Virus record (IMG/VR): IMGVR_UViG_3300021088_000008
Span: 1-64,000 of that record
Length of the DNA: 64,000 nt
Strand: one strand, 5' to 3'
DNA from: a virus
Both the position numbers and the translations under genes were made by a program. The notes under the pieces are model-generated. The model did not search any database, was not told the origin of the DNA, and was given only the letters and a program-made list of their open reading frames with translations. How positions within the stretch are numbered: the first letter of the stretch is position 1; every line of letters begins with the position of its first letter. Below, piece by piece: positions 11,494-56,155 of the stretch.

Positions 11494-12029
11494 GTTCAAA
11501 AATGTTCAAAAAGTTCAAAGATGCCTGCCAGCCCGGCTATCGCCGATTGAGCCTCGGATCATCCTTCATCGCAAAGCGAGCCTCGCCGTAGAACGGAGCG
11601 AGGGAGTAACGGCGAGCGGGAACTTCACCTTCCGACCGCGATCGATTGCCGCCAAGGGGATCGATCGGAAACTGAGGCAAGTACGGCATTTTTGTTTCCT
11701 GTTTGCGGGAGAGTGATTCGCAAGCCCGGGCGGCTGGCCCCCGATATCACGGGCACCTCAGCTCTACTCGCTGCCACCCTCGGGGTGGAATGCTTGGTAC
11801 CTCAACCGCATGGCATAGATGCCGGGTCTTGCGGAAGGACGGCTATGCCTTTAACAGTTCAAAGAATGTTCAAATGTTCAAAGCCGGGGTGATTCGATGG
11901 CGCGCGGCGGATTTCGGAAAAACAGCGGACCGAAGCTTGATGCAGATGGAAAGGCATTGAAGCCGTACAAGCGTCGCGATGGGGAAAGTTCAGAGAGTTC
12001 AAACGGGGAAAGTTCAAACGTTGTTCAAA
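11494..12029. repeat. three clusters of GTTCAAA heptamers
   Basis: Perfect copies at 11494, 11504, 11513, 11857, 11868, 11876, 11997, 12012, 12023; variant GTTCAGA at 11988. Confidence 0.8.
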
Positions 12030-26766: not shown

Positions 26767-27723
26767 ATGAACGCAAAAACCGGTACCGACAAAACGTGCC
26801 CCGCTTGCGGGGCATTGTTTTATGTGCAGGCCCATCGCGCCACGGGGGCCAAATTCTGTTCAATGAAATGCCTTTGGGCCGGGCGCCGCCCGCGCCCTGG
26901 GCCAGAGCTTCCCGTTACTCTGGTCTGCGCCAATTGTGGGAAGGAATTTCCTGTTCGACCTTATCGCAAGGATATTGCCAAGTTCTGCTCTCCGCGATGT
27001 GGTGCGCTTTTCAGTGGCGACAAACTAAAAAAGGCGAGAGCAGCAAAGCGAAGGCCAGGCGTAAAAACTTGTTCAAAGTGTAAAATCGAGAAACCGCACT
27101 CCGATTTCTGGAAACACTCCACGAGTTCTGACAGGATGCGCGGCGTCTGTATTCCGTGCCGTCAATCCGTTCACGATCAATGGATGGCTGCAAACCCTGG
27201 AAAGAAATTGGAGGCGGATCGTCGCTATTATGCAGAACATGCCGTTCAATTGAACGAATCCTCTCGGGCCAAATATGCTGCGAATCCAGAGCCTTTCTCC
27301 GAGCGTAACCGGGCGTGGCGCGCAGCTAACCCAGAAAAGGTAACGGCATCTAATATTCGAAAGCGGGAAAAGCACGGCGATAAGTTGCGCGCTGGAAAGC
27401 GTGCGCATTACCGGAAAAACAGCGCCATTTATAAAGCCCGAGCCGTTGCAAGGATGAAGCACATTAAGATCGCGACGCCGCCGTGGGCCGACATGGCGAA
27501 GATCTTCGCGATCTACGCCGAGTGCGAGCGCCTGACGAAAGAAACCGGTATTCCGCATCATGTCGACCACATTTACCCGTTGCGGGGAAGAACGATGTGC
27601 GGACTCCACGTCGAGGGAAATCTGCAGATCCTGCACGCCGTTGTAAATCTGAGGAAATCGAATAGAGTTCACGGAGACGATGGGGTGCCAGATTATTCCC
27701 TTCCAGGTGAAAATTGTGTATGA
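26767..27723 (+). CDS. free-standing HNH endonuclease with Zn-ribbon repeats
   Basis: HHVDHIYPLRGRTMCGLHVEGNLQIL...NLRKSN; CxxC...FCSxxC repeats; lower GC. Confidence 0.9.
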   Translation: MNAKTGTDKTCPACGALFYVQAHRATGAKFCSMKCLWAGRRPRPGPELPVTLVCANCGKEFPVRPYRKDIAKFCSPRCGALFSGDKLKKARAAKRRPGVKTCSKCKIEKPHSDFWKHSTSSDRMRGVCIPCRQSVHDQWMAANPGKKLEADRRYYAEHAVQLNESSRAKYAANPEPFSERNRAWRAANPEKVTASNIRKREKHGDKLRAGKRAHYRKNSAIYKARAVARMKHIKIATPPWADMAKIFAIYAECERLTKETGIPHHVDHIYPLRGRTMCGLHVEGNLQILHAVVNLRKSNRVHGDDGVPDYSLPGENCV

Positions 27724-31727: not shown

Positions 31728-32414
31728 GTGAACCTGCATGGTCTGGTCGGTCCCTACGTCGGTTCGGTCAACCCTCTGATCCCTGTCACAGTCCAGATCA
31801 GCACCGGGCCCGGCCCGCAGAACCCAGACGGCAGTCAGGTGCCTTCGTTCGCGACCCCTGGCGCAATCACTGCCTCGGTCTCGGGCGATGTCCTCACCGT
31901 CACCAACGTCGCCAGCGGGGTTCTGCAGCCCGGCCAAACGCTATCCGACGCCGGGGCGCTGCTGCCGACCACCACGATCACGTCTCAGTTGACGGGAACC
32001 GCCGGGGGCCTCGGGACGTACCTCCTCAGCCAGATCCAGCCGGCGCCGATCGCCTCGGAGGCGATGACCACCGCGCTCAATCTGATCGGGCAGGTCCAGC
32101 CGATCTCAACGCCGGATTTGAAGCAGCTCGAGGGGATCAATCTCGGCGGCGTCCATTGGAAAATTTACCTGTCCGGCGAGGTCGATGCTATCGTGCGGCC
32201 GGAGCGGAAGGGCGGGGACCTCGTCACGATCGGATCCGGTCGACATCAGGGAGTCTGGCTTGTGGTTGGAGTCCTGGAGCAGTGGCCGGATTGGTGCGTC
32301 GCAGGAATCGTGCTGCAAAATGACGCTGTTGTTACCGCGCCAGTTGCTCCGTTCTCGCCTTCGCTGGACTTCTCCGACCCGAGAAATTCACAGTTCTTGC
32401 CAGGCATCACATGA
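31728..32414 (+). CDS. head closure/neck protein
   Basis: MNLHGLV...VNP...QVQP...DLKQLEGIN...GGDL...WLVVGVLEQWPDW. Confidence 0.75.
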   Translation: MNLHGLVGPYVGSVNPLIPVTVQISTGPGPQNPDGSQVPSFATPGAITASVSGDVLTVTNVASGVLQPGQTLSDAGALLPTTTITSQLTGTAGGLGTYLLSQIQPAPIASEAMTTALNLIGQVQPISTPDLKQLEGINLGGVHWKIYLSGEVDAIVRPERKGGDLVTIGSGRHQGVWLVVGVLEQWPDWCVAGIVLQNDAVVTAPVAPFSPSLDFSDPRNSQFLPGIT

Positions 32415-33952
32415 AGAACATTCTCGCAAGCCTCGTGCTCCTCATCCTTTCCGCCGTTCCGGTAATGGCGGACTATCTCGCCAAGGATGCCAACGGCAAT
32501 ATCATCACGCTCAAAGCGGGGGTTCTTGGTGGCAATGTGCTTCCGTGGGTGTCTCCCGTGGATGGGACCGGAACAGCCTACGGGACGGTCAGCAATCCGT
32601 TCGCCGTCGCGCCCGGAACCGGCGCGTCATTTCCGGTCACCGGAACATTCTGGCAGGCGACGCAGCCAGTTAGCGCGGCATCGCTTCCGCTACCGGCCGG
32701 TGCGGCGACGTCAGCCCTCCAGAGTTCGACCATCACGGCGCTCGGCTCGCCGTTCCAGGCCGGCGGCAACATTGGTAACACCTCATTCGGGATCTCGGGC
32801 ACGCTCCCCGCATTCGCTGCAACGCCGACGTTCAACTGCGGGAGCGGATGTTTCCAGGCGACGCAGCCGATATCAGGAACGGTCACTGCGGCGCAGGCGA
32901 CCGCAGCCAACCTGAATGCGACCGTGGTGGGGACCGGAACGTTCGCAGTTCAAGCTGCCCAATCAGGAACATGGAACATCGGCAGCATCACGACTCTGCC
33001 GGCATTGGTGGCGGGCTCGGCGATCGTCGGAAAGGTCGGCATCGACCAAACCACGGTCGGCACGACCAACGGCGTATCGCTTGCCCAGATCGGAGCCAAC
33101 ACAATCTCGACTGGCGCGGGTGCAACGGGCACCGGAACGCAGCGGGTAGGCGTCGCGCAGGACACCACCACCGTCGCCGGGTCGGCGCCGGGTACCGCAG
33201 GAACGCCCTCTGCTAACGTCGTAACGGTGCAGGGCGCTGCGTCGATGACACCGGTGGCGGTTAACGGAGCATCCAGCAATGCGTCATCTGGCGTGGCGAC
33301 AAGCTCGACGAACGTCCCGACGGTCGCTTACAACTATGGATTCAATGGATCAACGTGGGACCCGGCCAAGAGCAAAGCCGCGAGCACGCAGGCGGCATTC
33401 ACGGATACAGCGATAGTCGCTGATCCCCGACCTAATAGCGCCGCGACGATTTCCGGCACCACGACGAATCCAACGACAGGCGCCTATACGCTGACGGCGA
33501 CCACGACCGCATACACTGCGGGACAATTGATCGCAAACAACGGCACCGCAGGTTCGGTTACGAACCCGAGTTTTTCCATTGCCAACTCGGGAGGTGGCGC
33601 CGCTATTCCGAGACTGCGATTGATCAGCAACGACACGACATCGACGGCATGGGCTGCGCAGACGGTCCAGGTCGATCTTTGGTCCGCCGCTCCGACATGG
33701 ACAAATGGCGATAGAGGCGCATGGTTGCCGCTGACGGGTAGTGCTTCGCATCTCGGGTCATTCACTTGCGTTTTCCCATCTGCCGAATGGGGTGACGGCA
33801 TCGCGACCGAATGCTCACCCGTAGTGGGGAACTTCTCTCTTTCGGCTCTCGCGTCAGGATCAACAATATACGCGTCGTATAAGGCCGTCACCGGATCTGG
33901 TGTCACCGGAGCGTCCAAGACCTTCACACTGATTGCAGAGGAAATGAACTGA
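32411..33952 (+). CDS. fibre-like beta-rich protein with N-terminal signal peptide
   Basis: MKNILASLVLLILSAVPVMA|DY; QATQPVSAASLPLPAGAATSALQ fibre-type repeats. Confidence 0.65.
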   Translation: MKNILASLVLLILSAVPVMADYLAKDANGNIITLKAGVLGGNVLPWVSPVDGTGTAYGTVSNPFAVAPGTGASFPVTGTFWQATQPVSAASLPLPAGAATSALQSSTITALGSPFQAGGNIGNTSFGISGTLPAFAATPTFNCGSGCFQATQPISGTVTAAQATAANLNATVVGTGTFAVQAAQSGTWNIGSITTLPALVAGSAIVGKVGIDQTTVGTTNGVSLAQIGANTISTGAGATGTGTQRVGVAQDTTTVAGSAPGTAGTPSANVVTVQGAASMTPVAVNGASSNASSGVATSSTNVPTVAYNYGFNGSTWDPAKSKAASTQAAFTDTAIVADPRPNSAATISGTTTNPTTGAYTLTATTTAYTAGQLIANNGTAGSVTNPSFSIANSGGGAAIPRLRLISNDTTSTAWAAQTVQVDLWSAAPTWTNGDRGAWLPLTGSASHLGSFTCVFPSAEWGDGIATECSPVVGNFSLSALASGSTIYASYKAVTGSGVTGASKTFTLIAEEMN

Positions 33953-35010
33953 TGCGACGACGATCTTTCATCGCAGCAGCACTGGCAGCATCCGCGCTGC
34001 TGGCGCTTGGGTGGCTGGGGTCGGCGGATGCGGTCTCTGGAAGCCGGTTGCTTCTGCTTGGGGGACCCCCTGGATGGGTCCAAAAAGGTGCGATCATTGA
34101 TGAGGTTTTTACAACTTCTCAGTATTACCCGCGCCCGATCGCGCAGGAACTAGTCGATACCAGAGCTTCATCCAAATTTCTTACGCCAACGAACGGAGTG
34201 CTTGTTTCTATCGGGAATAACGTGCTGCCACTTAGCAGCGCTGGTTTGTTGGTTGAACCGTCCGCGACAAATGGCGCGCTTCAGTCTCAAAACTTCTCTG
34301 CGACGTGGGCAGGAGCTCACAGCGGGATCGCCACGGCAAATGCCACAACGGCACCGGATGGAACTACGACAGCAAGCAAGATTGCTTATGGGTCGGCGAC
34401 GAACCAAAACTATCTGTTTGCGCAAGCTCAGACTTACGTCACGTCATCGGGGTATATCGTTTATACTTACGCCAAAGCAGCGGACTACAATTTTCTGGCG
34501 CTTGTGACGTTCGACGGAACCGACAATTTCGGTGTCATCTATAATTTGAGCACTGGAGCAGTTGTCGGAAATATCACCAACGCGCCGGTAGGAACGATAA
34601 CGGCAAGCGGCTCGTCCGCATTAGCAAATGGTTGGTATCTTTGCTGGTTCGCATTCACCGCGACAAATACCGGCTCGGCGTCGTTCGGCATCCAGGCAGG
34701 GCCGCAGCAAAGCAACAGCCAGAATATCAATACCCCCGGCGCTGGGGCGACCGGGAGTGGAATCTATGTTTGGGGTTATCAGAGCATGCTCGGATCGCTG
34801 CCATCGTCATACACTCCAACCACAACATCGACCGCTCCGCGCGCTGCCGACTCAATCGTCATTCAAAGAACTGGTATCGGGCGCATCGTTTTCACATTCG
34901 ACAATGGGAGCACGCAGACGATCTCTGGCATCAACCCTGCGGCTCAATACACTATCCCGACAAACCTGAACCGCGCGCTGATCACCCGAATAACGGGATA
35001 TGCATCGTGA
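33952..35010 (+). CDS. spike/fibre protein with carbohydrate-binding-like domain and Tat-like signal
   Basis: MRRRSFIAAALAA...; GLLVEPSATN, APDGTTTA, NGWYLC, SSYTPTT...RAAD. Confidence 0.65.
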   Translation: MRRRSFIAAALAASALLALGWLGSADAVSGSRLLLLGGPPGWVQKGAIIDEVFTTSQYYPRPIAQELVDTRASSKFLTPTNGVLVSIGNNVLPLSSAGLLVEPSATNGALQSQNFSATWAGAHSGIATANATTAPDGTTTASKIAYGSATNQNYLFAQAQTYVTSSGYIVYTYAKAADYNFLALVTFDGTDNFGVIYNLSTGAVVGNITNAPVGTITASGSSALANGWYLCWFAFTATNTGSASFGIQAGPQQSNSQNINTPGAGATGSGIYVWGYQSMLGSLPSSYTPTTTSTAPRAADSIVIQRTGIGRIVFTFDNGSTQTISGINPAAQYTIPTNLNRALITRITGYAS

Positions 35011-36455
35011 AGTGGGGCCTAGCTTTATTTATGCTCGCCTTCGCCCAGGACGCGAGCGCTCAATCGATGTCGCTGACGTTTCCGACATCGCTCACGATGG
35101 CATCAGGCCTACCGCTGCCATTCACGGGCGTCACCATATCCGATCCGAATCCAAATGCGACAACGGACACGGTCACGATTTTAATGAGCGGATCGGCTGG
35201 AGGAACACTGAGCGGTCCTGGCTTGACGGGGTCTAACCCCTATACGCTGATCGACGCGCCGGCCAATATCACGGCGGATCTGCAGGCCCTGACATACACC
35301 CCTGCGGTCGTTGGAAACACAAATGCGATTTTCGATATCTCGGTGTTTAGCACAGCAATCGCCACCTTGCAGCCTTCGGCGGCAGAGGTACAGATTCAAA
35401 ATATCAATCTGACCGATGAGGTACCGTACCCAGCGCCGTCCTGTACGTTTGTCTCGAGAAACTTCAAGGGCGTCAATATTTCCGGGGCGGAAAACACTTA
35501 CCCGGCAACGTCGCAATTCAATTATATCTACCCTGCGAATGTGGAACTGGATTACTTCGCATCGAAGGGATTCGGGCTGATTCGCATGCCGGTCCAAATC
35601 CGCCGCGTGCAAGAGTTTTCCTATGGCGACCTTGATCCCATCGGGCGCACCGACGAACCGGCTGTATCCGGGTCGGTGCCGGGAACGCAAACCAACCTAT
35701 TGGCGATGAAGTCAGTTTTTGATCACGCATGTGCCGACAACCTCTATGTCGTGATTGATTCGCACGATTACGGTTACATTCAGGATACGAACACCAATAC
35801 GTCTAGACCGATCGGATCCGATCCCGAGGCAACAGCGCAGTTCAAGGATTGGTGGATTCGGGTATCGACCAAATTTAGCAATTACCCAAACTTGATCTTT
35901 GGGATTATGAATGAACCATATGCGCAGACGCCCGGACAGTGGCAAGTGGGCGCGGTCGCGGCCATCAACGGCATTGCGCAGGTAACGACTTCGCGGATGG
36001 TGTTCATCCCAGGTACATCGTACACAGGTGGACATTCCTGGGTTTCGAGCGGAAACGCTGCAGCATGGGCTGGCTACGTTCCGCCAGCAGGGATGCAAAT
36101 CGCGTTCGAGATGCACGAATATCTTGATAGCGATTTTTCCGGATCGCATGCGGTTTGCGCTGGCAATGGTTCGGCGCCGATGACAGCAGCAACCGCATGG
36201 GCACAAGCGAATGGGTTTAAGATTTGGATCGGAGAAATCGGCTGGTCGCAAGATCCGAGCTGTCCTCCTGACGCCGCAAATCTGATGGGCTATTTCACGG
36301 CAAACGAACCCACATATCTCGGGTGGGCTTACTGGGTTGGCGGCAGTCAGGCGTTCTACGGCTCGTATATGTACACCGTGCAGCCGACCGGCTATCCAAC
36401 CGGACCGTTTGCGGATAAGCCGCAGATGTCGGTCCTCATTGGAAATCTGAATTGA
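35007..36455 (+). CDS. glycoside hydrolase family 5 endoglucanase with signal peptide
   Basis: GVNISGAE, IRMP, IDSHDYG, FGIMNEP (acid/base), FEMHEYLD, IGEIGW (nucleophile), GWAYW. Confidence 0.88.
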   Translation: MKWGLALFMLAFAQDASAQSMSLTFPTSLTMASGLPLPFTGVTISDPNPNATTDTVTILMSGSAGGTLSGPGLTGSNPYTLIDAPANITADLQALTYTPAVVGNTNAIFDISVFSTAIATLQPSAAEVQIQNINLTDEVPYPAPSCTFVSRNFKGVNISGAENTYPATSQFNYIYPANVELDYFASKGFGLIRMPVQIRRVQEFSYGDLDPIGRTDEPAVSGSVPGTQTNLLAMKSVFDHACADNLYVVIDSHDYGYIQDTNTNTSRPIGSDPEATAQFKDWWIRVSTKFSNYPNLIFGIMNEPYAQTPGQWQVGAVAAINGIAQVTTSRMVFIPGTSYTGGHSWVSSGNAAAWAGYVPPAGMQIAFEMHEYLDSDFSGSHAVCAGNGSAPMTAATAWAQANGFKIWIGEIGWSQDPSCPPDAANLMGYFTANEPTYLGWAYWVGGSQAFYGSYMYTVQPTGYPTGPFADKPQMSVLIGNLN

Positions 36456-36469
36456 TCGGAAATTGAAAC

Positions 36470-36844
36470 ATGACGAAATCAAGTTTGAAAACATGGCTCG
36501 GTATCGCCTACGTCGTGATCGGGCTGATCATGTTTGCCTCAGCAGCTTTTTCTCAGGGCATCACCGATCAGCCCATGGTTCCGCTCGGATATTGCCAACT
36601 TACCGCGCCGGCCGCCGCAACCAAACTATCGACTTGCGCTGGCGGTATTCCAGCCAACGCAAGGATGGTTTACATCTACGTGGAGACTGGCGCGGTTCGA
36701 TATCGCGATGATGGCGTTGCGCCGACAGCCGCGATTGGCATGCCGATAGCTGTTGGTGGGACGCTATTTTACACGGGGACATTGAGCAGCTTTCAGGTTA
36801 TCCAGCAGGCGGCATCAGTGGTAAATATTCTGTTTTATCGATGA
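36470..36844 (+). CDS. small protein with signal peptide, likely virion accessory
   Basis: Hydrophobic N-terminus ending AFS|Q; VRYRDDGVAPTAAIGMP. Confidence 0.6.
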   Translation: MTKSSLKTWLGIAYVVIGLIMFASAAFSQGITDQPMVPLGYCQLTAPAAATKLSTCAGGIPANARMVYIYVETGAVRYRDDGVAPTAAIGMPIAVGGTLFYTGTLSSFQVIQQAASVVNILFYR

Positions 36845-45451: not shown

Positions 45452-47317
45452 ATGGCCGGAACGTCGGTTCCTCAGATCCAATGGACGTCGGCCGGGTTTC
45501 TGGCGCCATCGGGCCCGTCCGTGCTGGCAGGCGTGCAACTCGACATCAGCGGCGCGTTTGGGAGTGCCCTCAGCTACGGGCTGACGACACCACAGGGTCA
45601 GCTGGCGCAGTCATGGGGCGCGATCGTTGTCAATTCGTATTCCACCGCGGTCTATTACGCTCAACAGTTCGACCCGGCCTATGCGTCCGGCAGGTTTCAG
45701 GATGCGCTGGGGCGGCTGATCCCCGGCTTCGCCCGGCAGCCTTCGGAGCCGACCGCACTCCAGATCATCTGCAACGGCGCGCAGGACGTTCAGATTCCGA
45801 TCGGCGCCTTGGTCCAGGACATCAACCTGAACCTCTATCAGTGCGTCCAGGCCGGCACGATCCCGGTCGGAGGCGCGATTACGCTGTCGTTTGCCGCGGT
45901 GGTGCCGGGCCCGCTGGCGGTCCCTGCCACGGTGACGCTGACGCAACTCATCCCCGGATGGGATTCTGCCACCGTGCTATCGGGCGCGATCGGGCGCAAT
46001 GTCGAGAGTCGCGCGGCATTTGAAACGCGGCGGCAGGACAGCGTCGCTGGCAACAGCTTCGGCCCGGTCGGCGCCATCATCGGCGCCGTCGCCGAGGTGC
46101 CGGGGGTGCTCGATTATTACGGTGTTGCCAATCCCACGAACGGCACCGTGGTCATCAACGGGGTCTCCATCGCCGCCTATTCGACGTACATCTGCGTTGC
46201 CGGCGGCGCGCCGGCGGCCGTGGCGCAGGCGATTTGGTCCAAAAAGAGCCCGGGCTCGCCGATGGTGGGCAACACCACGGTGACGGTTTACGACTCCAAC
46301 CCGCTGTATTCCGCGCCGGTTCCGTACCAGATCACCTATGAGATCCCGCCAGCGCTTCAGGTGCTGTTCAAGGTTGTGGTCGCTAACGGCCCGCTGGTCC
46401 CGTCGACATTCCAGACCCAGATCCAGAGCGCGATCCTCGCGGCGTTCTCGGGCCAATCCCTGCAGGCCAATTTCACCGGGTCGGTGGCGGGTACGACGTT
46501 GACGGTTTCCGCGGTGAATTCTGGAACGCTGTCGATCGGCCAGACGATCGATGACCTCACCGGCAACCTGGTCGCCAATACGACGATCACCGGGTTCGGC
46601 ACCGGGACCGGAGGAATCGGCACCTATTCTGTCAGCGTAGCGCAGACCGTCACCAGCGAGCCGATGACATCGGCGACCACCACCACCGGGACGACGATCC
46701 CGCGAGCACGGATCAATTCTCAGCTCTATGCGATCCAATATGTTCCCGCGGTGGCGGCATTGGGGACATGGGCGCAGGTCGCTGCGATCGGCATCGGATC
46801 AGCCAATGAATCCGATGCGGTGGTGGTTGGGAATATTTCCGGGAACAATCTGACGGTCACCGCGGTGACGTCAGGAACGTTGGTCACAAACGACGCGCTG
46901 TTCGACGTGCTGAATCTCACACTGAATGCCACCTATATCACCGGCCAGACCAGCGGTACCCCGGGTGGAGTCGGCGTCTATACGGTCAATCAACCCCAGA
47001 CGCTATTTGGCGCGACGTTCACGGGCACCGGATCAGGTTTTAACTTGACCGTTACGGCTGTGACCGGCGTGATTGTAAACGGCAATGTTCTGACCGGTAC
47101 CGGCGTTCCGGCCAACACCATCATCGTCAACCAAACCAGCGGCACGCCCGGCGGTGCTGGCGTTTACGTGACGAGCAACACCACGACGTCGAGCGGTGCG
47201 GCGCTCACCACCAACGGAGTCTTCACTGCGGCGTCGGCCGATCAGATCGTGATCCAGGTCAACGCGAATCAGGTGCCGCAACTCACCGCGGCGAACATTT
47301 TGGTTTCGCACACATGA
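45452..47317 (+). CDS. baseplate J-like protein with inserted repeat domains
   Basis: [42 protein letters not shown]. Confidence 0.85.
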
Positions 47318-47991
47318 CGGACACAGGCGCGCCTTATCCGAAGTACGCCCCCGGCTTCACGCCCGGCTCGAATGCTATCGGGACTTTCGCCATAGGCGTG
47401 AGCCCATTGGGGATGATTCCGCCGTTCGATCCGTGGGACACCGTGATGTCCCAATATGCGAACTCACCAATCATCACCGGCCTGATCACATCGTTCAACG
47501 CTGCGATGGACCTGACGCAGTTCTACGAGCAGTTCCTCGAGAACGAAGTGGATATCACCACCGCCGTCGGCTATGGGCTCGATGTGCTAGGTCGGATCGT
47601 CGGTGTCACCCGCGTGCTGAAATTCTCCGGCTTGACGCCGAGCTTTGGGTTCAACGAGGCGAACAGTTGGACCGGATTCAACCAGGGCAGCTTCGCCAGC
47701 GGCTCATCGTCGGTGTCGAACTTCATCCTGCAGGATTCCGACTTCCGGCGGCTCATCCTGGCCAAAGCTGCAGGAAATATCTCCGACGGGTCAATCCAAT
47801 CGACGAACAGCATCCTGCTGCAGCTTTTCCCCGGCCGCGGTACTGCCTACATCGCCGACAACCAGAATATGACGGCCACCTATACGTTCAGCTTTCCCCT
47901 GACACCGGTCGACCTCGCCATCCTGCAGACCCCTGGTGTCTTGCCCGATCCGGCTGGCGTCGGTATTAACATCACAGCCCCGCCGTCCTGA
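47314..47991 (+). CDS. baseplate protein (DUF2612-like)
   Basis: [41 protein letters not shown]. Confidence 0.8.
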
Positions 47992-48008: not shown

Positions 48009-49223
48009 ATGAAGAACCGAATCATAGCGGCCCTTGTCGCGGCTCTGGCGCTGTTCACTGCGAGCGGCGCGGGCGCCATCCAACAGGCCAATGTCCCGCC
48101 AAAGTTCGCGCTGACCTGGGGCGCGTTTGCGGCTACCCCGTACATCCGATCGATTCCGCAGCCATCGCAGATCGGCATCACGAATTGTTCGGCGTCGCTC
48201 ACGGACGGGTTTCCGCCGCTAACCTTCGTGCCTGCCGCAGCCGGCGGCTGCGCGCCGTTCGGGCAGGATTTCAACGGTATTCTTCGGCAGATCACGCAAT
48301 GGGATCAGTGGACCTCCGCAGGCGGACCCACCTTCTATGATGCAACGTTCGCGACGGGTGCGGCGAATGGATACCCGAAAGGCGCTATTCTCCAATCCAC
48401 GATCGTTCCGGGCGATTTCTGGTTATCGACCGCCGACAACAACACCTCAAATCCGGACACCGGCGGCGCGAATTGGGTGCCGTTGCCGAGCACATATCAG
48501 ACCGGATCGATCGCATGGACGTGGACGACTGTGCCCTCTGGATGGGTTAACCTGAACGCCTCGACTACGATAGGTAATGCGTCGTCCGGCGCGACAGTGG
48601 CCAACTCGACGACGCAACTTCTGTACGTTCTGCTGTGGAACAATTGTTCCAACACGCAATGCCCGGTCACCGGAGGGCGCGGCGCGAATGCTGCGGCGGA
48701 TTATGCCGCGAACAAGCAAATCTCTGTGTTCTCCATGGCCGGCTCCATGCAGATGGGGAACGACCAGGGCACAGGGGTTCTGAATAGCGTCCCGGTCATT
48801 TTCGGCGGCGGCCCGAACTTCAATCTATCATTGATCGGCGAGGTCTTTCACACCAACACTGTCGGCGAACTCCCGGCGCACACGCACAACATCAACATCA
48901 CGAGCAGCATCGAGAGTGCTGCCCACACACACACCGGATCAGGTACGACAGGAAACGATAGTCCGGATCATTTCCATTCGGTCGAGGGTTTCGGCGGCGG
49001 CGGTGCGAATGTCGCTGGCGGCGGCAGCTTCAACAATTCGAGCGTCAACACGTCAGGCGCCAATACGCGTCATCAGCACGCCTATTCGTTCACGACGAGC
49101 ACCGAGAGCGCCAACCACACGCATGTCGTCAACGGCGCCACCGATGGCGGTAATGGACTTTTCAACACGCCGGCCAATAACACGCCTCGAGCCATGATCG
49201 GCATATGGATTATCAAGCTATGA
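48009..49223 (+). CDS. tail fibre protein carrying an N-terminal signal peptide
   Basis: GFPPLTF..AGG..P.GQDFNGIL, YPKGA anchor motifs; collar-like domain; HTH/HxH repeats; MKNRIIAALVAALALFTASGAGA|IQ. Confidence 0.85.
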   Translation: MKNRIIAALVAALALFTASGAGAIQQANVPPKFALTWGAFAATPYIRSIPQPSQIGITNCSASLTDGFPPLTFVPAAAGGCAPFGQDFNGILRQITQWDQWTSAGGPTFYDATFATGAANGYPKGAILQSTIVPGDFWLSTADNNTSNPDTGGANWVPLPSTYQTGSIAWTWTTVPSGWVNLNASTTIGNASSGATVANSTTQLLYVLLWNNCSNTQCPVTGGRGANAAADYAANKQISVFSMAGSMQMGNDQGTGVLNSVPVIFGGGPNFNLSLIGEVFHTNTVGELPAHTHNINITSSIESAAHTHTGSGTTGNDSPDHFHSVEGFGGGGANVAGGGSFNNSSVNTSGANTRHQHAYSFTTSTESANHTHVVNGATDGGNGLFNTPANNTPRAMIGIWIIKL

Positions 49224-50101
49224 AACTCGCATCCCTGATCTTCGCCACCGTCATCATGTCGATTTTTTCGACTGGATTGGAGGCGGAACCCGCAAAGATT
49301 CTGAAATCCCAAGTGGGCCCGACGTTTCAGGCGGACGTCGCGGCCTATGCCAAGGAAATGATGGATTGGAAGGCTCACATGGCTGCGGTCGCTGCAGACA
49401 AGGCTGCCGGCGTGCCGAAGGAAAAGGCCCATGCGCCCTTCCCGCCGCCAATAGCTCCTGCCGACGTCGCCGCGGCGGTCGACGATACGGGCACACCGAA
49501 CTATGTCATCGTCGACGATGGCCCGACACCGGATCAAGTTCTTGCGGCGAAGAAACAGGCGCTGATCAGCGAGATCCAGGAGGCCGAGGTAGCGCAGATC
49601 GAGAAAGTCATCCCGGCGGCGAAGCTTCGCGCCGCCGAGTTTCGAGCCGCCGACATACAGGTGGCGGATGCCGCGGCAGTTGAGCAATCGCTGCGCGCGG
49701 TTGACAATGAGCGGAACAAGTTGGCCGCTCTCAATAGCCAGCAAGAGAAAATTGAAATGAAGTTGGCGGCCGAGCAGCCGGGACTGATCGGAGCGGCCAT
49801 GCAATCTATGACCGGGCTCGGCGCGGTGATTGCCTCTGATCTGGCGGCAGCAAAAGCGCTTGATCAGCCGATCGCCGATCAGGCCGCGGTGGTGAAGCAG
49901 GCCGAGGCCGCCTACGCCGACCGGCCAGCCCTAATGGCGAAGACCAGATCACCCGCCGATCACGCCTTCATGCTGGCGCGAGAGGCCAACAGGAAGACGG
50001 TCGAATCGATTCACCGATGGGCGGCGCAGGCGATGTCCGATGTTGCCGATCTGACCACGGCGAATGTCGATGCGTGGAAACTGCCACCGTTCCAGAACTG
50101 A
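49220..50101 (+). CDS. tail fibre assembly/chaperone-like protein with signal peptide
   Basis: ATGA overlap after fibre; YVIVDDGPTPDQVLAAKKQALI; MKLASLIFATVIMSIFSTGLEA|EP. Confidence 0.55.
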   Translation: MKLASLIFATVIMSIFSTGLEAEPAKILKSQVGPTFQADVAAYAKEMMDWKAHMAAVAADKAAGVPKEKAHAPFPPPIAPADVAAAVDDTGTPNYVIVDDGPTPDQVLAAKKQALISEIQEAEVAQIEKVIPAAKLRAAEFRAADIQVADAAAVEQSLRAVDNERNKLAALNSQQEKIEMKLAAEQPGLIGAAMQSMTGLGAVIASDLAAAKALDQPIADQAAVVKQAEAAYADRPALMAKTRSPADHAFMLAREANRKTVESIHRWAAQAMSDVADLTTANVDAWKLPPFQN

Positions 50102-50110
50102 GGGGAATCG

Positions 50111-52321
50111 ATGCGCCATTTCAAAGCGGCCCTCTTCGCGTTGCTGGCGCTCCTGCCGAGCGCCGCGCTGGCGCAAAGTCTGCCGCCATGGCCGATCACG
50201 ACATATGGATATGTTGCGAGCCCGGCGCAGTGGGGCGTGCTCGCCACCATGAAGCAAGACTACCTCGGCGCACCTCCGGTCTTGACGTCCGGCGGAATCA
50301 TGACCGGCGAGTTGACCACGGCGCCCGCGACTGCATCGAGGTCGGGATTCAATTGTCCTCCTGGCGTGGCGCCGACGTCACCTGTCAACGGTGATATTTG
50401 GTGTACCAATGCCGGTGTGTTCTCTCAAGTTAACGGATCGACGATCGGTCCGCTGATAGGTGGCGGATCATCAACATTCACGGGAACGTCTCCCATTGTT
50501 CCGACGTTTCCAGGCGGAGGCGTCGTTAATTACGCATTCAATTTCTCGGTTTCAAATACGTTCCTGGCGAATCAAACCGGGCAGGGCGCGACCACGACTC
50601 AGCCAGGATGGTATGCACAGATCTCCGGAGACACATTCGCTCGTGCGCGCATCGGTCCCAATTCGGCTGATGTTGCGGCAGTAAGCTTCGGACCGGGCAA
50701 TGCCGCGCGAGACACCCACATTGAGAGAGCGGCGCCAGCTACGTTGCGCCTTGGATCCACCGATGCAGCGGCTCCGATCGCCCAAACGCTTATCGTGCAG
50801 AACGTCATCGCTGGAACGTCAAATACGGCTGGAACAAATCTAACGATTAATGGGTCACAGGGGACTGGAACCGGTGGCGGCGGCTCCATTATCTTTCAGG
50901 TTGCCCCGTCCGGAAGCACTGGGACCGCACAGAATGCACTGTCTCCGGCCCTGACTCTGAACAGTTCTAAGTTGGCAACATTCGGTGGTCACGTCTCAAT
51001 TGAAGGAGTTACGTCCGCCGGGGCCACCGGCACCGGAAATTTGGTGTTTGGATCGTTACCGACGATATCAACGCCGACTATCGCAGGCGGCGCGCTATCT
51101 GGCACATTCTCAGGAACGCCAACATTCTCTGGCGCGAATTTCCTAACCCTGTCAAATCTTGCGCAATCGTCGGCCGGCGCCCAATTCCTCGGTGTTTCCG
51201 GAGCATCTACCGCTAACTATGCGCCATTCACGCTGGCTAGCCTCGCCAATTTGGCTTCTCCTAGCCCGACGCTTGATCTGATCCCGATCACCGACCATAC
51301 GACCGGAACCATAAAAAACGTGACGCCAGCCGCGATCGCAGGATCGGTGGTTTCCGGTGTCGCGACCCTGAACAGCCAGACCGGGAACCTCGTCGGATGG
51401 ACGCCGCCGCAGGGGCGCCTCAGTCTCAGCACCGCAGCAGTCATGACCGCGAGCGTTGCCGGCGCTACGGCTATCAACTATGTGGCTTACACCGGCCACA
51501 ACGTTCCGATCTACAACGGAACTGCCGTCGTGCAGGCCCAGATCTGCGCAGCGAATACTATCGGGAATTGCTTGCTATCCGTGACGCTCGGGAGCAACTG
51601 GCTAGCCAGCACGTTCTATGATTGGCTGATCGCATGGAACAGTGGAACGCCAACACTGTGCAGCGTCGCATGGACCAATTCGACGACGCGGGCGACGGCG
51701 CTCACCCCGATAGATGGCCTGAACACCAATGCGTCGTCATTCACATGCGCCACCGGCAACAGCACAAGCATCACCGTTCCAGCAAACCAGGGAACTTACG
51801 TCGGGACGTGCGAAACTGGATTGGCCGGACAGTTTAATCACATCTATGGCGGCACGGCTGCCGGCGGCACGGCGGCCTTCATAGGGTGCTGGAATGCCTT
51901 CAACCGGATCCAGCAGCGAACAATCGTCAGCGATACAACGGCATCATGGACCTATGCCGTCGCACTCACGTGGCGCGCCGCAAACGCCGGGCTGCCGGCC
52001 CACGTACAGGGAACATTCGTGAGAGGCCTCGCAGAGGATAGCCTTGTGGGAACCTACTATGGGTTCTCGCAGCCGGGCGCCGGATCGGCATCTGCCGTCG
52101 GCGTTGGATTGGATTCCACAACGACGCCATGCGGGATAACGATGCCGGCCACACAAGCTGCCGTCAATCAGGCCGTAACAGCGAACTGCGCTTCGATTCC
52201 AGGGATTGGCGCTCATGTCATGGCCGCCCTCGAATGGAACTTCAATACGACTGCTGGTACGTTCTACGGACTTCCGAATGCTGGCGGTCAAACCGGACTT
52301 GAAATGGTCTTCTCATACTGA
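50111..52321 (+). CDS. long tail fibre/spike protein with signal peptide
   Basis: Thr/Gly/Ser-rich; PPQGRLSL, TYVGT, WNAFNR fibre motifs; MRHFKAALFALLALLPSAALA|QS. Confidence 0.75.
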   Translation: MRHFKAALFALLALLPSAALAQSLPPWPITTYGYVASPAQWGVLATMKQDYLGAPPVLTSGGIMTGELTTAPATASRSGFNCPPGVAPTSPVNGDIWCTNAGVFSQVNGSTIGPLIGGGSSTFTGTSPIVPTFPGGGVVNYAFNFSVSNTFLANQTGQGATTTQPGWYAQISGDTFARARIGPNSADVAAVSFGPGNAARDTHIERAAPATLRLGSTDAAAPIAQTLIVQNVIAGTSNTAGTNLTINGSQGTGTGGGGSIIFQVAPSGSTGTAQNALSPALTLNSSKLATFGGHVSIEGVTSAGATGTGNLVFGSLPTISTPTIAGGALSGTFSGTPTFSGANFLTLSNLAQSSAGAQFLGVSGASTANYAPFTLASLANLASPSPTLDLIPITDHTTGTIKNVTPAAIAGSVVSGVATLNSQTGNLVGWTPPQGRLSLSTAAVMTASVAGATAINYVAYTGHNVPIYNGTAVVQAQICAANTIGNCLLSVTLGSNWLASTFYDWLIAWNSGTPTLCSVAWTNSTTRATALTPIDGLNTNASSFTCATGNSTSITVPANQGTYVGTCETGLAGQFNHIYGGTAAGGTAAFIGCWNAFNRIQQRTIVSDTTASWTYAVALTWRAANAGLPAHVQGTFVRGLAEDSLVGTYYGFSQPGAGSASAVGVGLDSTTTPCGITMPATQAAVNQAVTANCASIPGIGAHVMAALEWNFNTTAGTFYGLPNAGGQTGLEMVFSY

Positions 52322-52332
52322 GGTAAGATTTC

Positions 52333-53268
52333 ATGCTATATGCTCGGATCATCGTTCTTCTATTTCTCGCCTTCATCATCAGCCCGGCACTAGCGCAGCG
52401 CGGTTCATCATCGCCCGATCCTAACCAATTGAATACGAACTTTCCCGTTAGCATCGGATGTACGATCAATCCAAATGTCAATGCCGTAACGCTGCAAGCC
52501 AGCCAGATTCCAAATCCGGCCAACCATTATCTTGTTGCGATCGTCGACGGGCAGTCCAACGGCACCAACATCATCCCCACGACCTACACGCCAACGAACG
52601 CGTCTGCTATCCTGCAGATGAACATCGGTGATGGAGGTGTCTATTCGATTTCGGACCCGGTTCTTGGGACATGCCTCAACGCGGCTGGTTCTGGTTGGAG
52701 TATGCTGCAGCTTTTTGACGCCTTGATCACGGCGGGTAAATTCGACCACGTCCTCGTTGAGCCTATCAACGTCGATGGCACGGCGGTTGCCGACCACGCG
52801 AGCGGATTTCTTCAAGGCAGGTTGGCTACGGCAATCAATCGTCTCGCCGCGAAGGGCTGGGTTGCCGGAACCAACATCACAGTGATCGTGATCTGGATGC
52901 AGGGCGAGAGTGACAATCTAGCGGGAACCACTCAGGCAAATTACACGAGCACATTGAACTCTCTTATCGCGCAGAGCCGAGCCGCCGGGTTTGCTGGGCC
53001 ATGGTTTGTTCCGGAAGAAACTTGGGATAACGGTGCGGCATCGACCGCCGTGCAGCTTGCACAGACGAGTGTATCACCAAGCGGCGTGATCAACACTTCC
53101 GCGAGCGTCTATCCGGGCCCCAACCTTGACGCTCTGGTTGGATCGATATGCACAGGGTCGGCGGCATGTCGACAGGCCGATAATACGCACTTCACGACCG
53201 CAGCACGTGCTAATGTCACGTCGGTATGGCAGACCGCACTTCACGCCGCATTGCCATCCATTTTTTAG
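52333..53268 (+). CDS. SGNH / sialate O-acetylesterase-family esterase with signal peptide
   Basis: DGQSN, WMQGESD, DNTHF; N-terminus ending PALA|Q. Confidence 0.8.
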   Translation: MLYARIIVLLFLAFIISPALAQRGSSSPDPNQLNTNFPVSIGCTINPNVNAVTLQASQIPNPANHYLVAIVDGQSNGTNIIPTTYTPTNASAILQMNIGDGGVYSISDPVLGTCLNAAGSGWSMLQLFDALITAGKFDHVLVEPINVDGTAVADHASGFLQGRLATAINRLAAKGWVAGTNITVIVIWMQGESDNLAGTTQANYTSTLNSLIAQSRAAGFAGPWFVPEETWDNGAASTAVQLAQTSVSPSGVINTSASVYPGPNLDALVGSICTGSAACRQADNTHFTTAARANVTSVWQTALHAALPSIF

Positions 53269-53277
53269 GAGTTTCCG

Positions 53278-54132
53278 ATGCGCCATCCTTTCGAGATCCT
53301 GAAGCCGGAATATTCGCAGTTGCTCTCTGCGATGGTGATCCGGAAGGAATGCCGCGCCGAGGTCGACCACGTCGCGATGAAGTTGGTCGGGTTCAAGCCT
53401 CGGTATCAGTCCGTGAGCGTGGCGACCGGCGTGCCGATCGTCTTCATGGCTACGCTATTCGAGCGCGAGGCCGGTTCTGATTTCACGAGAAACGCAGGTC
53501 AAGGCTGGCCTTTGAATAGCATATCGCGGGACATTCCCAAGAACGGACCCTTCCGGACGTGGGCAGATTCGGCGATTGCTGCGTACCATCTCAATGGACT
53601 CGATCGCGTTGGCGCGCCCAACTGGATCTGGGAATTGATCTGCTTCTATGGAGAACTTTTTAACGGGTTTGGACCGCGCGACGAGCATCATCAGCACACC
53701 AGCTATCTATGGGGAGGAACGAACATTCAGACCCCTGGCAAATACGTGAGAGATCACGTTTACGATCCAACCGTGATGGACGAGCAGTTGGGTATCATCC
53801 CGGTCGCCCGCCGAATGGTCGAGATCGACCCGTCGCTGGCGTTGCCGAGCGCTGCGATCGCACCGCCGATCCATTCCGGCATTGCGGCGCCTGAGACCGG
53901 CGTCGATACGAAGTGGGTTCAGACCGCCCTGAACAAGATCGGCTGGGAGCCTCCGCTGCACGTCGATGGCAGCTATGGCGACAAGACGAAAAAGGCGGTG
54001 GAGCATTTCCAGCGTTCCTACAATCTCACGGTTGACTTCGCCGGGCCTGAGACTGTTGCCGCGCTCAAGGAAGCGCTGGCCGCGCTCGACGCGCCGAAGG
54101 AAGAGCCAGCGGCACCGAAGGTTGCGACGTGA
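53278..54132 (+). CDS. endolysin (lysozyme-like domain + peptidoglycan-binding domain)
   Basis: ERE, ELFNGFG, YLWGGT..GKYVRDH; VQTALN..VDGSYGDKTKKAVEHFQ. Confidence 0.85.
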   Translation: MRHPFEILKPEYSQLLSAMVIRKECRAEVDHVAMKLVGFKPRYQSVSVATGVPIVFMATLFEREAGSDFTRNAGQGWPLNSISRDIPKNGPFRTWADSAIAAYHLNGLDRVGAPNWIWELICFYGELFNGFGPRDEHHQHTSYLWGGTNIQTPGKYVRDHVYDPTVMDEQLGIIPVARRMVEIDPSLALPSAAIAPPIHSGIAAPETGVDTKWVQTALNKIGWEPPLHVDGSYGDKTKKAVEHFQRSYNLTVDFAGPETVAALKEALAALDAPKEEPAAPKVAT

Positions 54133-54341: not shown

Positions 54342-55058
54342 ATGCGCCGACTTCTCATCGTACCGGCCCTGCTGCTGTCCTTGGTTCTGCCGGCGGCCGC
54401 GCAGTTCAACAACATCCATCCCGAAGGCGTTCCAATGCCGACTTCGGCCGATGTGGTCGCGTCCCAGAGGGTGGGTGGTCCGGTCGCGATCGGCCAGGCG
54501 CAGTTGCAGAAGGACGATGGCGGCAAGGTTGCGCTGATCTCGGCGCCGGCACCGCCCTCTGGAGGCCTGATCCAGTTTTCCGCCTTCGGCTGGCTTGAGC
54601 CGTACGTCGACTCGGCCGCCAATGCCTTGATCCTGGCGCTCGTCGGGTACATGGCAACCGTGCTCAAGACGAAATGGAATATCGACCTCGATCAGGGGCA
54701 TCGCAACGCGCTGACGACGTTCCTGCAGAACCGCGCTGCATCGCTGATCTCCGATGGCGCCGTTAGAATGAGCGGTAAGTCCGTGCAGGTCGATAACGCG
54801 ATGCTGGCGCGCGCGGCAAATCAGGCGTCGCTGGCAATACCCGGCGTGCTGAAGCGATTCGGCCTGACCCCGGACGTGGTCGCCGCCAAAATCATCGACG
54901 CCATCCCGCAGACGACCGCGGGAGCTGCCATCATCGCCGACGCGCACAAGGACAGCCCGGAGCCGCCGGTAACGGTCACCGACCGCCCCATTGTGCCCTC
55001 GGCGAACGCCGCACCGAGCTTCCTCGTTCCCCCCACGGCGCCGCTGACGGCTGCATGA
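54342..55058 (+). CDS. membrane protein, holin-like candidate
   Basis: Signal-like N-terminus plus one TM segment; next to endolysin. Confidence 0.5.
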   Translation: MRRLLIVPALLLSLVLPAAAQFNNIHPEGVPMPTSADVVASQRVGGPVAIGQAQLQKDDGGKVALISAPAPPSGGLIQFSAFGWLEPYVDSAANALILALVGYMATVLKTKWNIDLDQGHRNALTTFLQNRAASLISDGAVRMSGKSVQVDNAMLARAANQASLAIPGVLKRFGLTPDVVAAKIIDAIPQTTAGAAIIADAHKDSPEPPVTVTDRPIVPSANAAPSFLVPPTAPLTAA

Positions 55059-55297
55059 ACCGGGTCATTGCGGCGCTGCTGGCCTCGGTGGCGCCTGCGG
55101 CCGCGGCCGAGCACATGGTGATGTTTTCGGTCGCTCCGGATTGCTGCACCACCACCGCTCAGGTCCGCGGCGTGCCATTCTCTCTGGATTCGGGACAGCG
55201 GTTTTGGATCCCGCAATCGTGGTCCAAAGATGCTATCGAGGCCGGCTATCATCCCTGCGGCCGCTATGGCTGCGAGCAGCCCAATGAGCGGCGGTGA
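55055..55297 (+). CDS. small putative exported protein
   Basis: ATGA overlap; hydrophobic N-terminus; four Cys. Confidence 0.4.
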   Translation: MNRVIAALLASVAPAAAAEHMVMFSVAPDCCTTTAQVRGVPFSLDSGQRFWIPQSWSKDAIEAGYHPCGRYGCEQPNERR

Positions 55298-55414
55298 TGC
55301 AGAAATGGCACGGTGGGAGATAATCTGACCCGAATTGCCGCATTTCCTCTTCGACCTGACGTGGTCGGCGCGTACCTTCCCGCGCATTCCGTCACCCCCT
55401 TGAGAGGACACCCC

Positions 55415-56155
55415 ATGAAGAACTTCCTCCGCATTGCGGCGATCGCCGCAGCTTTCCTGGCCGGTCCCGCGCTCGCTGCGGACCTTGCCGTGAAGGCGCC
55501 AGCAGCCCCCGTCTTCACCGGATACCCGTTCGGCACCTCCGGCTTCTACGCCGGCATCTTCACGGAGGCGGGCGGCGGCCCGGTGGTCGCCAGTGTCCCC
55601 GGCGTCAATCCGGCTAGCCTGACCACGACCACAGCAGGTGTTGGCCTGAATGCCGGCTATGCCTGGGGCAGCAAGACCAGCATGTTCGCCTATGCGATCG
55701 AGGGCAAAGTCTCCGCGACCAATTTCAACGGCGCGAATCAGGGTTTCTCGGTCTCAGGTCCAGTTTCGTTCGAGGGTACCGGTCTGATCTGGACGCCCGT
55801 TTCAACCATCCAGAATGCACTCGGGCTGCTGAGCCTGCCGAATCCGTTCAGCAGCGTCGCGCCCTTCCCGCTACTCCCGGTCGGCGTGACCGCCAGCAAT
55901 GTCCAAACCGGGTTCGGCGCCGGCTTCCGCGCCGACGACGTGACGGTGGCATTTCTCGGCGCCGGATCGAACAAGGTCTGGTCGTTCTCGCCCAAGATCG
56001 AGTTCGACCTGATGGAACAGCTCAGCAACGGTTCGGCCGTTCGCGAATATGTCGAGACCGTATTTCAAAATAAGGGCGTCACGTTCGGCGGCCCGGTCGG
56101 AGTAACGTCGACCGTGGGCACGAAGTATCTCGCCGGCGTCGCCGTCGAGTTCTGA
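55415..56155 (+). CDS. outer-membrane beta-barrel protein (rhizobial Omp25/RopB-like)
   Basis: Signal peptide, AADLAVKAP, SGFYAG, GLNAGYAW, C-terminal Phe. Confidence 0.75.
   Translation: MKNFLRIAAIAAAFLAGPALAADLAVKAPAAPVFTGYPFGTSGFYAGIFTEAGGGPVVASVPGVNPASLTTTTAGVGLNAGYAWGSKTSMFAYAIEGKVSATNFNGANQGFSVSGPVSFEGTGLIWTPVSTIQNALGLLSLPNPFSSVAPFPLLPVGVTASNVQTGFGAGFRADDVTVAFLGAGSNKVWSFSPKIEFDLMEQLSNGSAVREYVETVFQNKGVTFGGPVGVTSTVGTKYLAGVAVEF

Follow-up and report, generated by a model that had tools for sequence, protein, structure and literature searches.

The DNA analyzed here, referred to as the window, is the 64,000-base stretch formed by bases 1-64000 of the 73,218-base IMG/VR record IMGVR_UViG_3300021088_000008. 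The record was rated 100% complete by CheckV, and the source virus is a complete, uncultured 73-kb myovirus. We were particularly interested in four consecutive plus-strand genes at positions 48009-53268, which follow the baseplate genes and encode tail fiber 1, a fiber-associated helical protein (p49220), tail fiber or spike 2 and a predicted carbohydrate O-acetylesterase (Table 1). All four encode leaders made of a basic n-region, a hydrophobic h-region and a c-region ending in AxA, just as the initial annotation had described. Its statement that the core proteins lack such leaders also held, since none was seen at the start of the portal, major capsid, sheath, tube, tape measure, hub or wedge protein.

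Leaders of the four genes and their families

The n-regions contain lysine or arginine (MKNR in fiber 1, MK in p49220, MRHFK in fiber 2 and MLYAR in the esterase), and the h-regions are uncharged over 12, 14, 10 and 11 residues, respectively. Small residues occupy positions -3 and -1 of all four predicted cleavage sites, and a proline lies four to six residues upstream in two of them. Signals were called with a simple home-made heuristic, which flagged 29 of 547 structural genes upstream of the fiber in related loci (about 5%) versus 4/4 here, indicating that four leaders in a row did not arise by chance. Chance hydrophobic N-termini or wrong start codons, for which this background leaves some room, were rejected as hardly credible, given the four adjacent genes, a register that is fixed in more than 100 divergent homologs and a fiber gene with no alternative start. 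In the fiber 1 open reading frame (ORF), whose upstream ATG (47991) is overlapped by the stop of the DUF2612 baseplate gene, no in-frame ATG, GTG or TTG occurs between 48009 and 48228, and 48228 is already within the conserved domain. The fiber leader is therefore necessarily part of the translated product.

Fiber 1 matched phrog_12796 (tail fiber; E 2.1e-28), with profile position 3 aligning to residue 32 of the 410-residue form. In tblastn searches its N-domain matched 134 cultured-phage records, and the matches listed all start at query residue 24 or beyond. Annotated coding sequence (CDS) starts were compared in 3 of these 134 records, and those of Bcep1 gp33, vB_E177 and phiAO1 were located at, or three codons before, the point aligned to query residues 24-26. 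The initial annotation was thus right that in relatives this domain begins with the initiator Met, and because these three CDS begin at or close to the mature N-terminus, the fiber 1 leader is a true extension. The leaderless phrog_12796 fibers of Bcep1/Bcep781, phiE131/vB_E177, OP2 and phiAO1-type phages have N-domains 40-50% identical to that of the window fiber over about 130-160 residues, and like it they have a variable C-terminus and a place directly after the DUF2612 gene, homologs of which were found in 147 related loci. They start at the domain's own initiator Met, whereas the window fiber has a 23-residue predicted cleavable leader and two cysteine pairs.

A large protein collection contained 823 fiber 1 homologs, and among the best 120 of these 823 most bear a leader. 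Across 119 leader-bearing homologs, alanine was found at predicted position -3 in 105 and at -1 in 106, proline was common at -4 and -6, and residue +1 was Leu, Met or Ile (Ile in the window). The best 10-residue Kyte-Doolittle window scored 1.57-3.48 with a leader and at most 1.39 without one; scores of the leader-bearing homologs were at least 2.1 except in the N-terminally truncated P0005 and P0007. For fiber 2, 77 unique leaders were aligned on an A-x-A/Q site, giving Ala at -3 in 67, Ala at -1 in 73 and Gln at +1 in 75, with a choice of site that itself favored A and Q. The leader sequences vary freely and the n-h-c shape is retained. All four families contain some members with a leader and others without, and where a leader is present it is added exactly at the conserved mature N-terminus. 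Leaderless forms begin with M-x-x-S-x-I-P-x-K-F in fiber 1, with M-G-x-S-P-G-W in fiber 2 (coinciding with the cut position of the leader forms), with M-T-H-K-I in p49220 and with S-x-P-D-P in the esterases, including Mesorhizobium proteins named sialate O-acetylesterase. On the sequence level, it is well supported that the leaders are conserved, selected functional signals with the shape of a cleavable Sec (signal peptidase I) signal.

The same data bear on the possibility that these N-termini are uncleaved signal anchors, or segments like those of signal-arrest-release (SAR) endolysins, which would tether the proteins to the inner membrane until they are released or picked up at lysis. A 19-residue hydrophobic stretch in the protein encoded at 36470 could indeed span a membrane. 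However, the four h-regions of 10-14 residues are too short for a stable span, alanine at -3/-1 in 88-95% of homologs together with the proline just upstream suggests that cleavage by signal peptidase I is under selection, and the mature proteins would begin just where the leaderless forms begin. Anchoring is accordingly judged quite unlikely.

We give equally little credence to leaders that are weak or mostly bypassed, so that the bulk of the fiber would fold in the cytoplasm and enter the virion with or without its leader, some relatives using a second start. Met was found at predicted +1 after A-x-A in 41 of the 119 leader-bearing fiber 1 homologs; this residue, a possible internal start, probably goes back to the ancestral start codon and could permit a leaderless second isoform. 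Starts downstream of the leaders, a possibility raised in the initial annotation, were excluded for the window fiber, which has Ile at +1 and no start before 48228. In p49220, translation could also begin at a TTG (49277) that corresponds to the first codon of the leaderless forms; homologs at 40-44% identity nevertheless retain a signal-like extension. Moreover, selection for even cysteine numbers and for new cysteine pairs in leader forms (see below) is hard to square with cytoplasmic folding.

For p49220, no Pfam or PHROG match was obtained. The alignment showed a 22-residue leader insertion in 5 of 12 sequences (the window, L073, L074, L075 and L076), the other seven loci (L084, L083, L004, L003, L091, L111 and L089) being leaderless, and in 12/12 loci the leader state was that of the neighboring fiber 1. 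L073 and L074 are nearly identical to the window, so about three leader lineages are represented. A profile search returned 519 cluster representatives at E≤0.001; the heuristic flagged 9 of the best 150 of these 519, and 7 look real by eye, indicating that the family is mostly leaderless. The AlphaFold2 (AF2) model, with a predicted local distance difference test (pLDDT) value of 87.2, consists of long helices, with the leader at pLDDT of about 51. A fold search of BFVD and PDB gave nothing at E≤0.001, just generic long-helix proteins, and the best ESM Atlas scores (0.77 and 0.75) were under the meaningful level. The protein is in no named chaperone family. Its gene position and the 12/12 leader co-variation suggest that it is probably a fiber partner or chaperone, obliged to share the compartment of the fiber.

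The window fiber 2 protein matched no Pfam or PHROG family. Its N-domain is present in 62 related loci, the Pam5 tail spike aligns with its residues 432-645 at 33% identity (E 4e-12), and 10 scanned homologs included C-terminal Peptidase_S74 (2), Collar (1) and Gp53-like_C (1) domains. A conserved N-domain with swapped C-termini, Peptidase_S74 among them, is the pattern of virion fibers, and judged by this pattern the family is a genuine fiber or spike family. By the heuristic, 39 of 50 database matches bear a signal, and the other 11 align to other parts of the query. The predicted esterase scored E 5.5e-05 and 23.3 bits against PF03629 (cut-off 24.8) and contains the motifs G-Q-S-N at residue 73 and Q-G-E-S-D. 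Among the 41 homologs listed, the window protein included, PF03629 is precomputed in 30 and a signal was flagged in 24; three homologs are named sialate O-acetylesterase by their source.

Cysteine content and leader state

The two cysteine codons pointed out earlier in the fiber 1 N-domain were correct and encode residues 60 and 81 of the 404-residue protein, and the close cysteine pairs quoted for fiber 2 and the esterase are likewise present. At the positions of Cys60 and Cys81, leaderless homologs, including the cultured-phage fibers, have Gly and Val/Ile/Thr, as expected of residues in contact. In the region of the second pair (Cys213 and Cys218), a C-x(3-5)-C pair was found in 79/118 leader forms versus 2/122 leaderless ones. 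When the fiber 1 profile was compared with PDB sequences, a single weak match was obtained, to the tailspike depolymerase 24qi_A (E 2e-4), away from the cysteine region.

Fiber 1 N-domains were pooled from proteins and loci, giving 241 unique sequences, with counts that include related sequences. Leader and cysteine pair occurred together in 112 and were both absent from 119, while 7 had a leader and no pair, 2 (P0102 and P0110) had a pair and no leader, and 1 had a single Cys and no leader. P0102 and P0110 start at the Met corresponding to +1 of many leader forms, and are therefore probably truncated gene calls. The seven leader-only forms (L085, L096, L106, L109, L112, L145 and P0118) look like an intermediate state and may serve as natural controls. 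The genome that contains L096 is complete, with direct terminal repeats.

Mature fiber 1 proteins with a leader (n=118) had a mean of 4.58 Cys, with an even number in 92% and exactly four in 77/118, as against a mean of 1.82 and 49% even in leaderless ones (n=122). In the fiber 2 family, leader-bearing members (n=38) had a mean of 7.63 Cys, 89% even, and those called leaderless (n=12, of which one, L003, is leader-bearing by eye) had a mean of 2.0. At least three different Cys-pair positions were seen in the N-domains of leader-bearing fiber 2 forms, and none in leaderless forms. In this genome, the mature Cys count is even in 10/11 leader proteins, the exception being the Tat-like protein at 33952, and odd in 12/19 leaderless structural proteins that contain Cys. 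An even-Cys bias is a mark of exported, disulfide-bonded proteins in the literature on bacterial disulfide formation. Comparison of the sequences thus shows that the predicted exported state has shaped the cysteine content of the leader-bearing proteins.

The leader states of the two fibers were also compared in 59 fiber 1-fiber 2 pairs. Both fibers had a leader in 21, only fiber 2 in 25 and neither in 13, and a fiber 1 leader without a fiber 2 leader occurred in 0/59 (Fisher p 0.002, relatedness uncorrected). An apparent fusion ORF of the two fibers in L092 turned out to be an open out-of-frame stretch.

Proposed export and assembly of the host-contact proteins

It is very likely, as far as sequences can tell, that the host-contact proteins are really Sec-exported. 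The whole reading, in which these peripheral proteins undergo Sec export and oxidative folding and join cytoplasmic particles at lysis, is on balance somewhat favored; export, cleavage and joining are steps that we infer. Fiber 1, its partner, fiber/spike 2 and the O-acetylesterase, and probably the GH5 cluster at 32411-36844 too, would be made as pre-proteins with cleavable Sec leaders and would pass the inner membrane unfolded. After removal of the leader at A-x-A, they would fold in the oxidizing periplasm with structural disulfides, and the fibers would also trimerize there. The exported parts would reach the fiberless, cytoplasm-built particles only after the inner membrane had been opened by the holin, whereupon the mature fiber N-terminus, matching that of leaderless relatives, would dock on DUF2612/the baseplate. 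The leaderless endolysin fits such holin-dependent lysis. No second, leaderless fiber 1 copy was found in the 73-kb genome. Because fiber 1 is the sole copy and all candidate receptor-binding proteins bear leaders, the infectious particle would need the exported parts. What the initial annotation had proposed was thus supported in part: the association of leader and Cys pair and the even-Cys bias in both fiber families argue for periplasmic export and disulfide folding, while attachment at or after lysis is conjectural.

Phages of this group look functional. IMG/VR contains many related records of 70-74 kb, and the five examined were all rated 100% complete, 3/5 with direct terminal repeats. 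The 100% complete genomes that have such repeats include G305, whose fiber has a leader and a Cys pair, and G306, whose fiber has a leader but lacks the pair. A broader proposal is that soil-type myoviruses of about 72 kb use two-compartment assembly: heads, tails and baseplates would be built in the cytoplasm, and all surface-touching parts (both fibers, the fiber partner, the O-acetylesterase and the GH5 glycanase cluster) would pass through Sec, one perhaps through Tat, be disulfide-folded in the periplasm and be attached when the holin fires. We hold this proposal tentatively, as possible but just short of probable. The nested distribution of leaders suggests an order for the switch, with fiber 2 alone first, then fiber 1 and its partner, and Cys pairs only after the leader.

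Several observations weigh against attachment of exported, disulfide-folded fibers at lysis. The initial annotation had suggested that leader gain might correlate with Cys-pair gain. Raw counts were strongly positive, but a tree of 119 full-length fiber 1 homologs had at least nine leader changes and at least six Cys-pair changes, and of five independent pairs on supported branches three changed the same way, none the opposite way and two were unchanged (sign test p 0.25). A 241-row FastTree tree gave a similar result. With few independent events on the trees, the raw leader/Cys counts overstate independence. Furthermore, 7/119 leader-bearing fibers do without the Cys pair, indicating that a disulfide is not required. 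In a one-genome-per-species set, 72 fiber-domain loci were found, 61 of them with the domain pattern, and only 2/61 had the leader form (a Terracidiphilus metagenome-assembled genome contig and Bradyrhizobium oropedii); among 301 sampled genomes of the family of B. oropedii, the fiber N-domain was found only in that genome itself. The heuristic missed L003, and 2/9 of its calls in one set were false by eye. Fibers might also attach inefficiently once the lysate is being rapidly diluted. Finally, the fiber 2 leader accompanies a leaderless fiber 1 in 25/59 pairs, so fiber 2 may act apart from the virion.

This last point leads to the main rival explanation, which we consider rather unlikely: the leader-bearing proteins would be exported but would not belong to the virion, acting instead on the envelope of the producing or lysogenic cell, where they would mask or destroy receptors. 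In this way they would bring about superinfection exclusion, shield progeny from debris, or loosen capsule or extracellular polysaccharide (EPS) ahead of release. The predicted esterase and the GH5 enzyme are enzymes for surface glycans, a leader-bearing outer-membrane-protein-like gene lies nearby, and export of fiber 2 is independent of fiber 1 in the pairs just mentioned. There is also a cellular example: Pantoea stewartii WceF, a trimeric tailspike-fold protein with an export signal, acts on surface polysaccharide outside the cytoplasm (PMC7949094). WceF is the product of a cellular gene of an EPS cluster, with a Tat signal and no virion-docking domain, whereas the window genes lie in a complete phage structural module and encode docking domains. 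Fiber 1 retains its docking N-domain and its place after DUF2612, and without the exported parts the virion would have no recognizable receptor-binding protein. The virion-fiber pattern among fiber 2 relatives and the 12/12 change of compartment of the partner with its fiber also argue for a place in the particle. Action off the virion fits the enzymes and fiber 2 better than fiber 1, and for fiber 2 and the esterase, whose leaders occur with a leaderless fiber 1 in those 25 pairs, host-surface action may still apply.

Known systems offer partial parallels to attachment of exported fibers at lysis. The g3p protein of Ff filamentous phages is a virion receptor-binding protein with a Sec signal peptide that is disulfide-folded in the periplasm. 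It resembles the predicted window proteins in being a leader-bearing receptor-binding protein, but inoviruses are extruded from the membrane at which they are put together, whereas the window belongs to a tailed phage, with cytoplasmic assembly of head and tail, and there is no sequence relation. Lambda Lom and Bor, T5 Llp, Cor and exported or SAR endolysins are phage proteins that use host Sec before lysis; in contrast to the candidate receptor-binding proteins considered here, none of them is known to be a structural component of the virion that binds the receptor. Agrobacterium phage Milano, a phage of Alphaproteobacteria, has a disulfide-stabilized virion with Cys cross-links in its tail proteins, which are not known to have signal peptides and whose bonds are thought to form after release. 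The likeness lies in the tail-protein cysteines, and the difference in the lack of any known signal peptide there. In searches of freely available full-text papers, no report of signal peptides on tailed-phage tail fibers was found. The excerpts of PMC10820202, PMC3556154, PMC5026251 and PMC5723332 deal only with endolysins, spanins, methods or counts, those of PMC10820202 naming a SAR endolysin for which a signal was predicted.

The joining step, if shown, would be a new mode of assembly. It would contradict the usual assumption that in tailed phages every structural protein is folded and assembled in the cytoplasm, and fiber attachment gated by lysis would be a new last step of morphogenesis. 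Receptor-binding proteins would be oxidatively folded, and disulfide-stabilized fibers may suit soil conditions; exported fibers could also mask receptors late in infection, and cell-free or heterologous production of such phages or fibers would require export or an oxidizing host. The leaderless, leader-only and leader-plus-Cys-pair forms are a natural series in which a protein and its partner can be followed across compartments. Annotation pipelines in which a signal peptide counts against a place in the virion would give these fibers a wrong label. The idea can be tested in a cultured strain, Bradyrhizobium oropedii Pear76, whose contig 49 (L002) contains a prophage region with a leader-bearing, Cys-containing fiber 1 and a leader-bearing fiber 2.

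Other leader-bearing genes and the structural module

Table 1. Positions of the genes and sequence features discussed, numbered from the first base of the window.
Feature	Position	Strand	Basis or remark
Terminase	8507	+	PHROG/Pfam scan
Portal	11897	+	PHROG/Pfam scan
Protease	21914	+	PHROG/Pfam scan
Major head protein	25617	+	PHROG/Pfam scan
Neck	29983	+	PHROG/Pfam scan
Leader-bearing 513-aa protein, no family	32411-33952	+	between neck and sheath genes
Leader-bearing 352-aa tail protein (phrog_5939), Tat-like MRRRSFI start by eye	33952-35010	+	PHROG
Leader-bearing GH5 cellulase	35007-36455	+	PF00150, E 2.1e-37
124-aa protein, signal or membrane anchor	36470-36844	+	19-residue hydrophobic stretch
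Sheath	37603	+	PHROG/Pfam scan
Tube	39613	+	PHROG/Pfam scan
Tape measure	40878	+	PHROG/Pfam scan
Dit-like	42352	+	PHROG/Pfam scan
Pam3-gp18-like plug	42969	+	PHROG/Pfam scan
E217-gp41-like hub	43296	+	PHROG/Pfam scan
Wedge	45067	+	PHROG/Pfam scan
Baseplate-J-like	45452	+	PHROG/Pfam scan
DUF2612 baseplate protein, no leader	47314-47991	+	PF11041, E 8.4e-48; phrog_587
Tail fiber 1, 404 aa: leader, conserved baseplate-docking N-domain, C-terminal H-x-H repeats	48009-49223	+	phrog_12796
Fiber 1 leader, 23 aa	48009-48077	+	MKNRIIAALVAALALFTASGAGA; predicted cleavage after AGA, then IQQ
Cys60 and Cys81, flanking ASLTDGFPP...AGG	codons 48186-48188, 48249-48251	+	alignment
Second Cys pair, Cys213 and Cys218 (N-C-x-N-x-x-C-P)	48645-48662	+	alignment
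Fiber-associated helical protein (p49220), 293 aa	49220-50101	+	alignment, leader co-variation, AF2 model
p49220 leader, 22 aa	49220-49285	+	MKLASLIFATVIMSIFSTGLEA; predicted cut before EP
Tail fiber or spike 2, 736 aa: conserved N-domain (..YG.VPTPAQW..), variable C-terminus, 10 Cys	50111-52321	+	homologs
Fiber 2 leader	50111-50173	+	MRHFKAALFALLALLPSAALA; predicted cut before QS
SASA/SGNH-type carbohydrate O-acetylesterase (predicted), 311 aa, 4 Cys	52333-53268	+	PF03629, motifs
Esterase leader	52333-52395	+	MLYARIIVLLFLAFIISPALA; predicted cut before QR
Endolysin with PG_binding_1, no leader	53278-54132	+	PF01471, E 4e-12; endolysin PHROGs
Leader-bearing gene after endolysin	54342-55058	+	
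Leader-bearing 80-aa protein, 62-aa mature part, 4 Cys (D-C-C, C-G-R-Y-G-C)	55055-55297	+	
Outer-membrane-protein-like gene	55415-56155	+	leader MKNFLRIAAIAAAFLAGPALA, then ADL; after lysis genes

The initial annotation had confined the leaders to the tail fiber module, which did not hold. Besides the four genes of this module, four leader-bearing genes were found at 32411-36844 and three at 54342-56155, giving about eleven in this genome, versus 0-2 predicted signal peptides in each of five rumen phage genomes according to Table 3 of PMC5723332 (PMC5723332). For the 33952 protein, a Pfam scan at E≤0.01 returned no family, and its R-R-R-S-F-I motif was recognized by eye only; in the relative G304, a 732-residue protein with the same RRRSFI start occupies the same place. 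The GH5 protein was not found in five complete relatives. Among the related loci compared, the 55055-55297 protein was found only in L073. The outer-membrane-protein-like product of 55415-56155 had no Pfam family match, and 8 related loci contain a homolog in the corresponding position. When this gene was compared with three genomes for host inference, it matched one, weakly (E 4.7e-4). It is reminiscent of phage morons of the lom/bor type.

PHROG and Pfam scans of the window revealed a full myovirus structural module on the plus strand, and no integrase was found among the window proteins scanned. The portal gene (11897-15772) is very long, encoding 1291 residues, of which portal PHROGs cover residues 108-455; the remainder resembles minor head or DNA pilot proteins. 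The head maturation protease (21914-23185), recognized at residues 224-408, has an N-terminal MutT/NUDIX domain at residues 20-157. An endonuclease VII/HNH/Lar-like protein is encoded at 26767-27723, inside the structural module and right after the major head gene.

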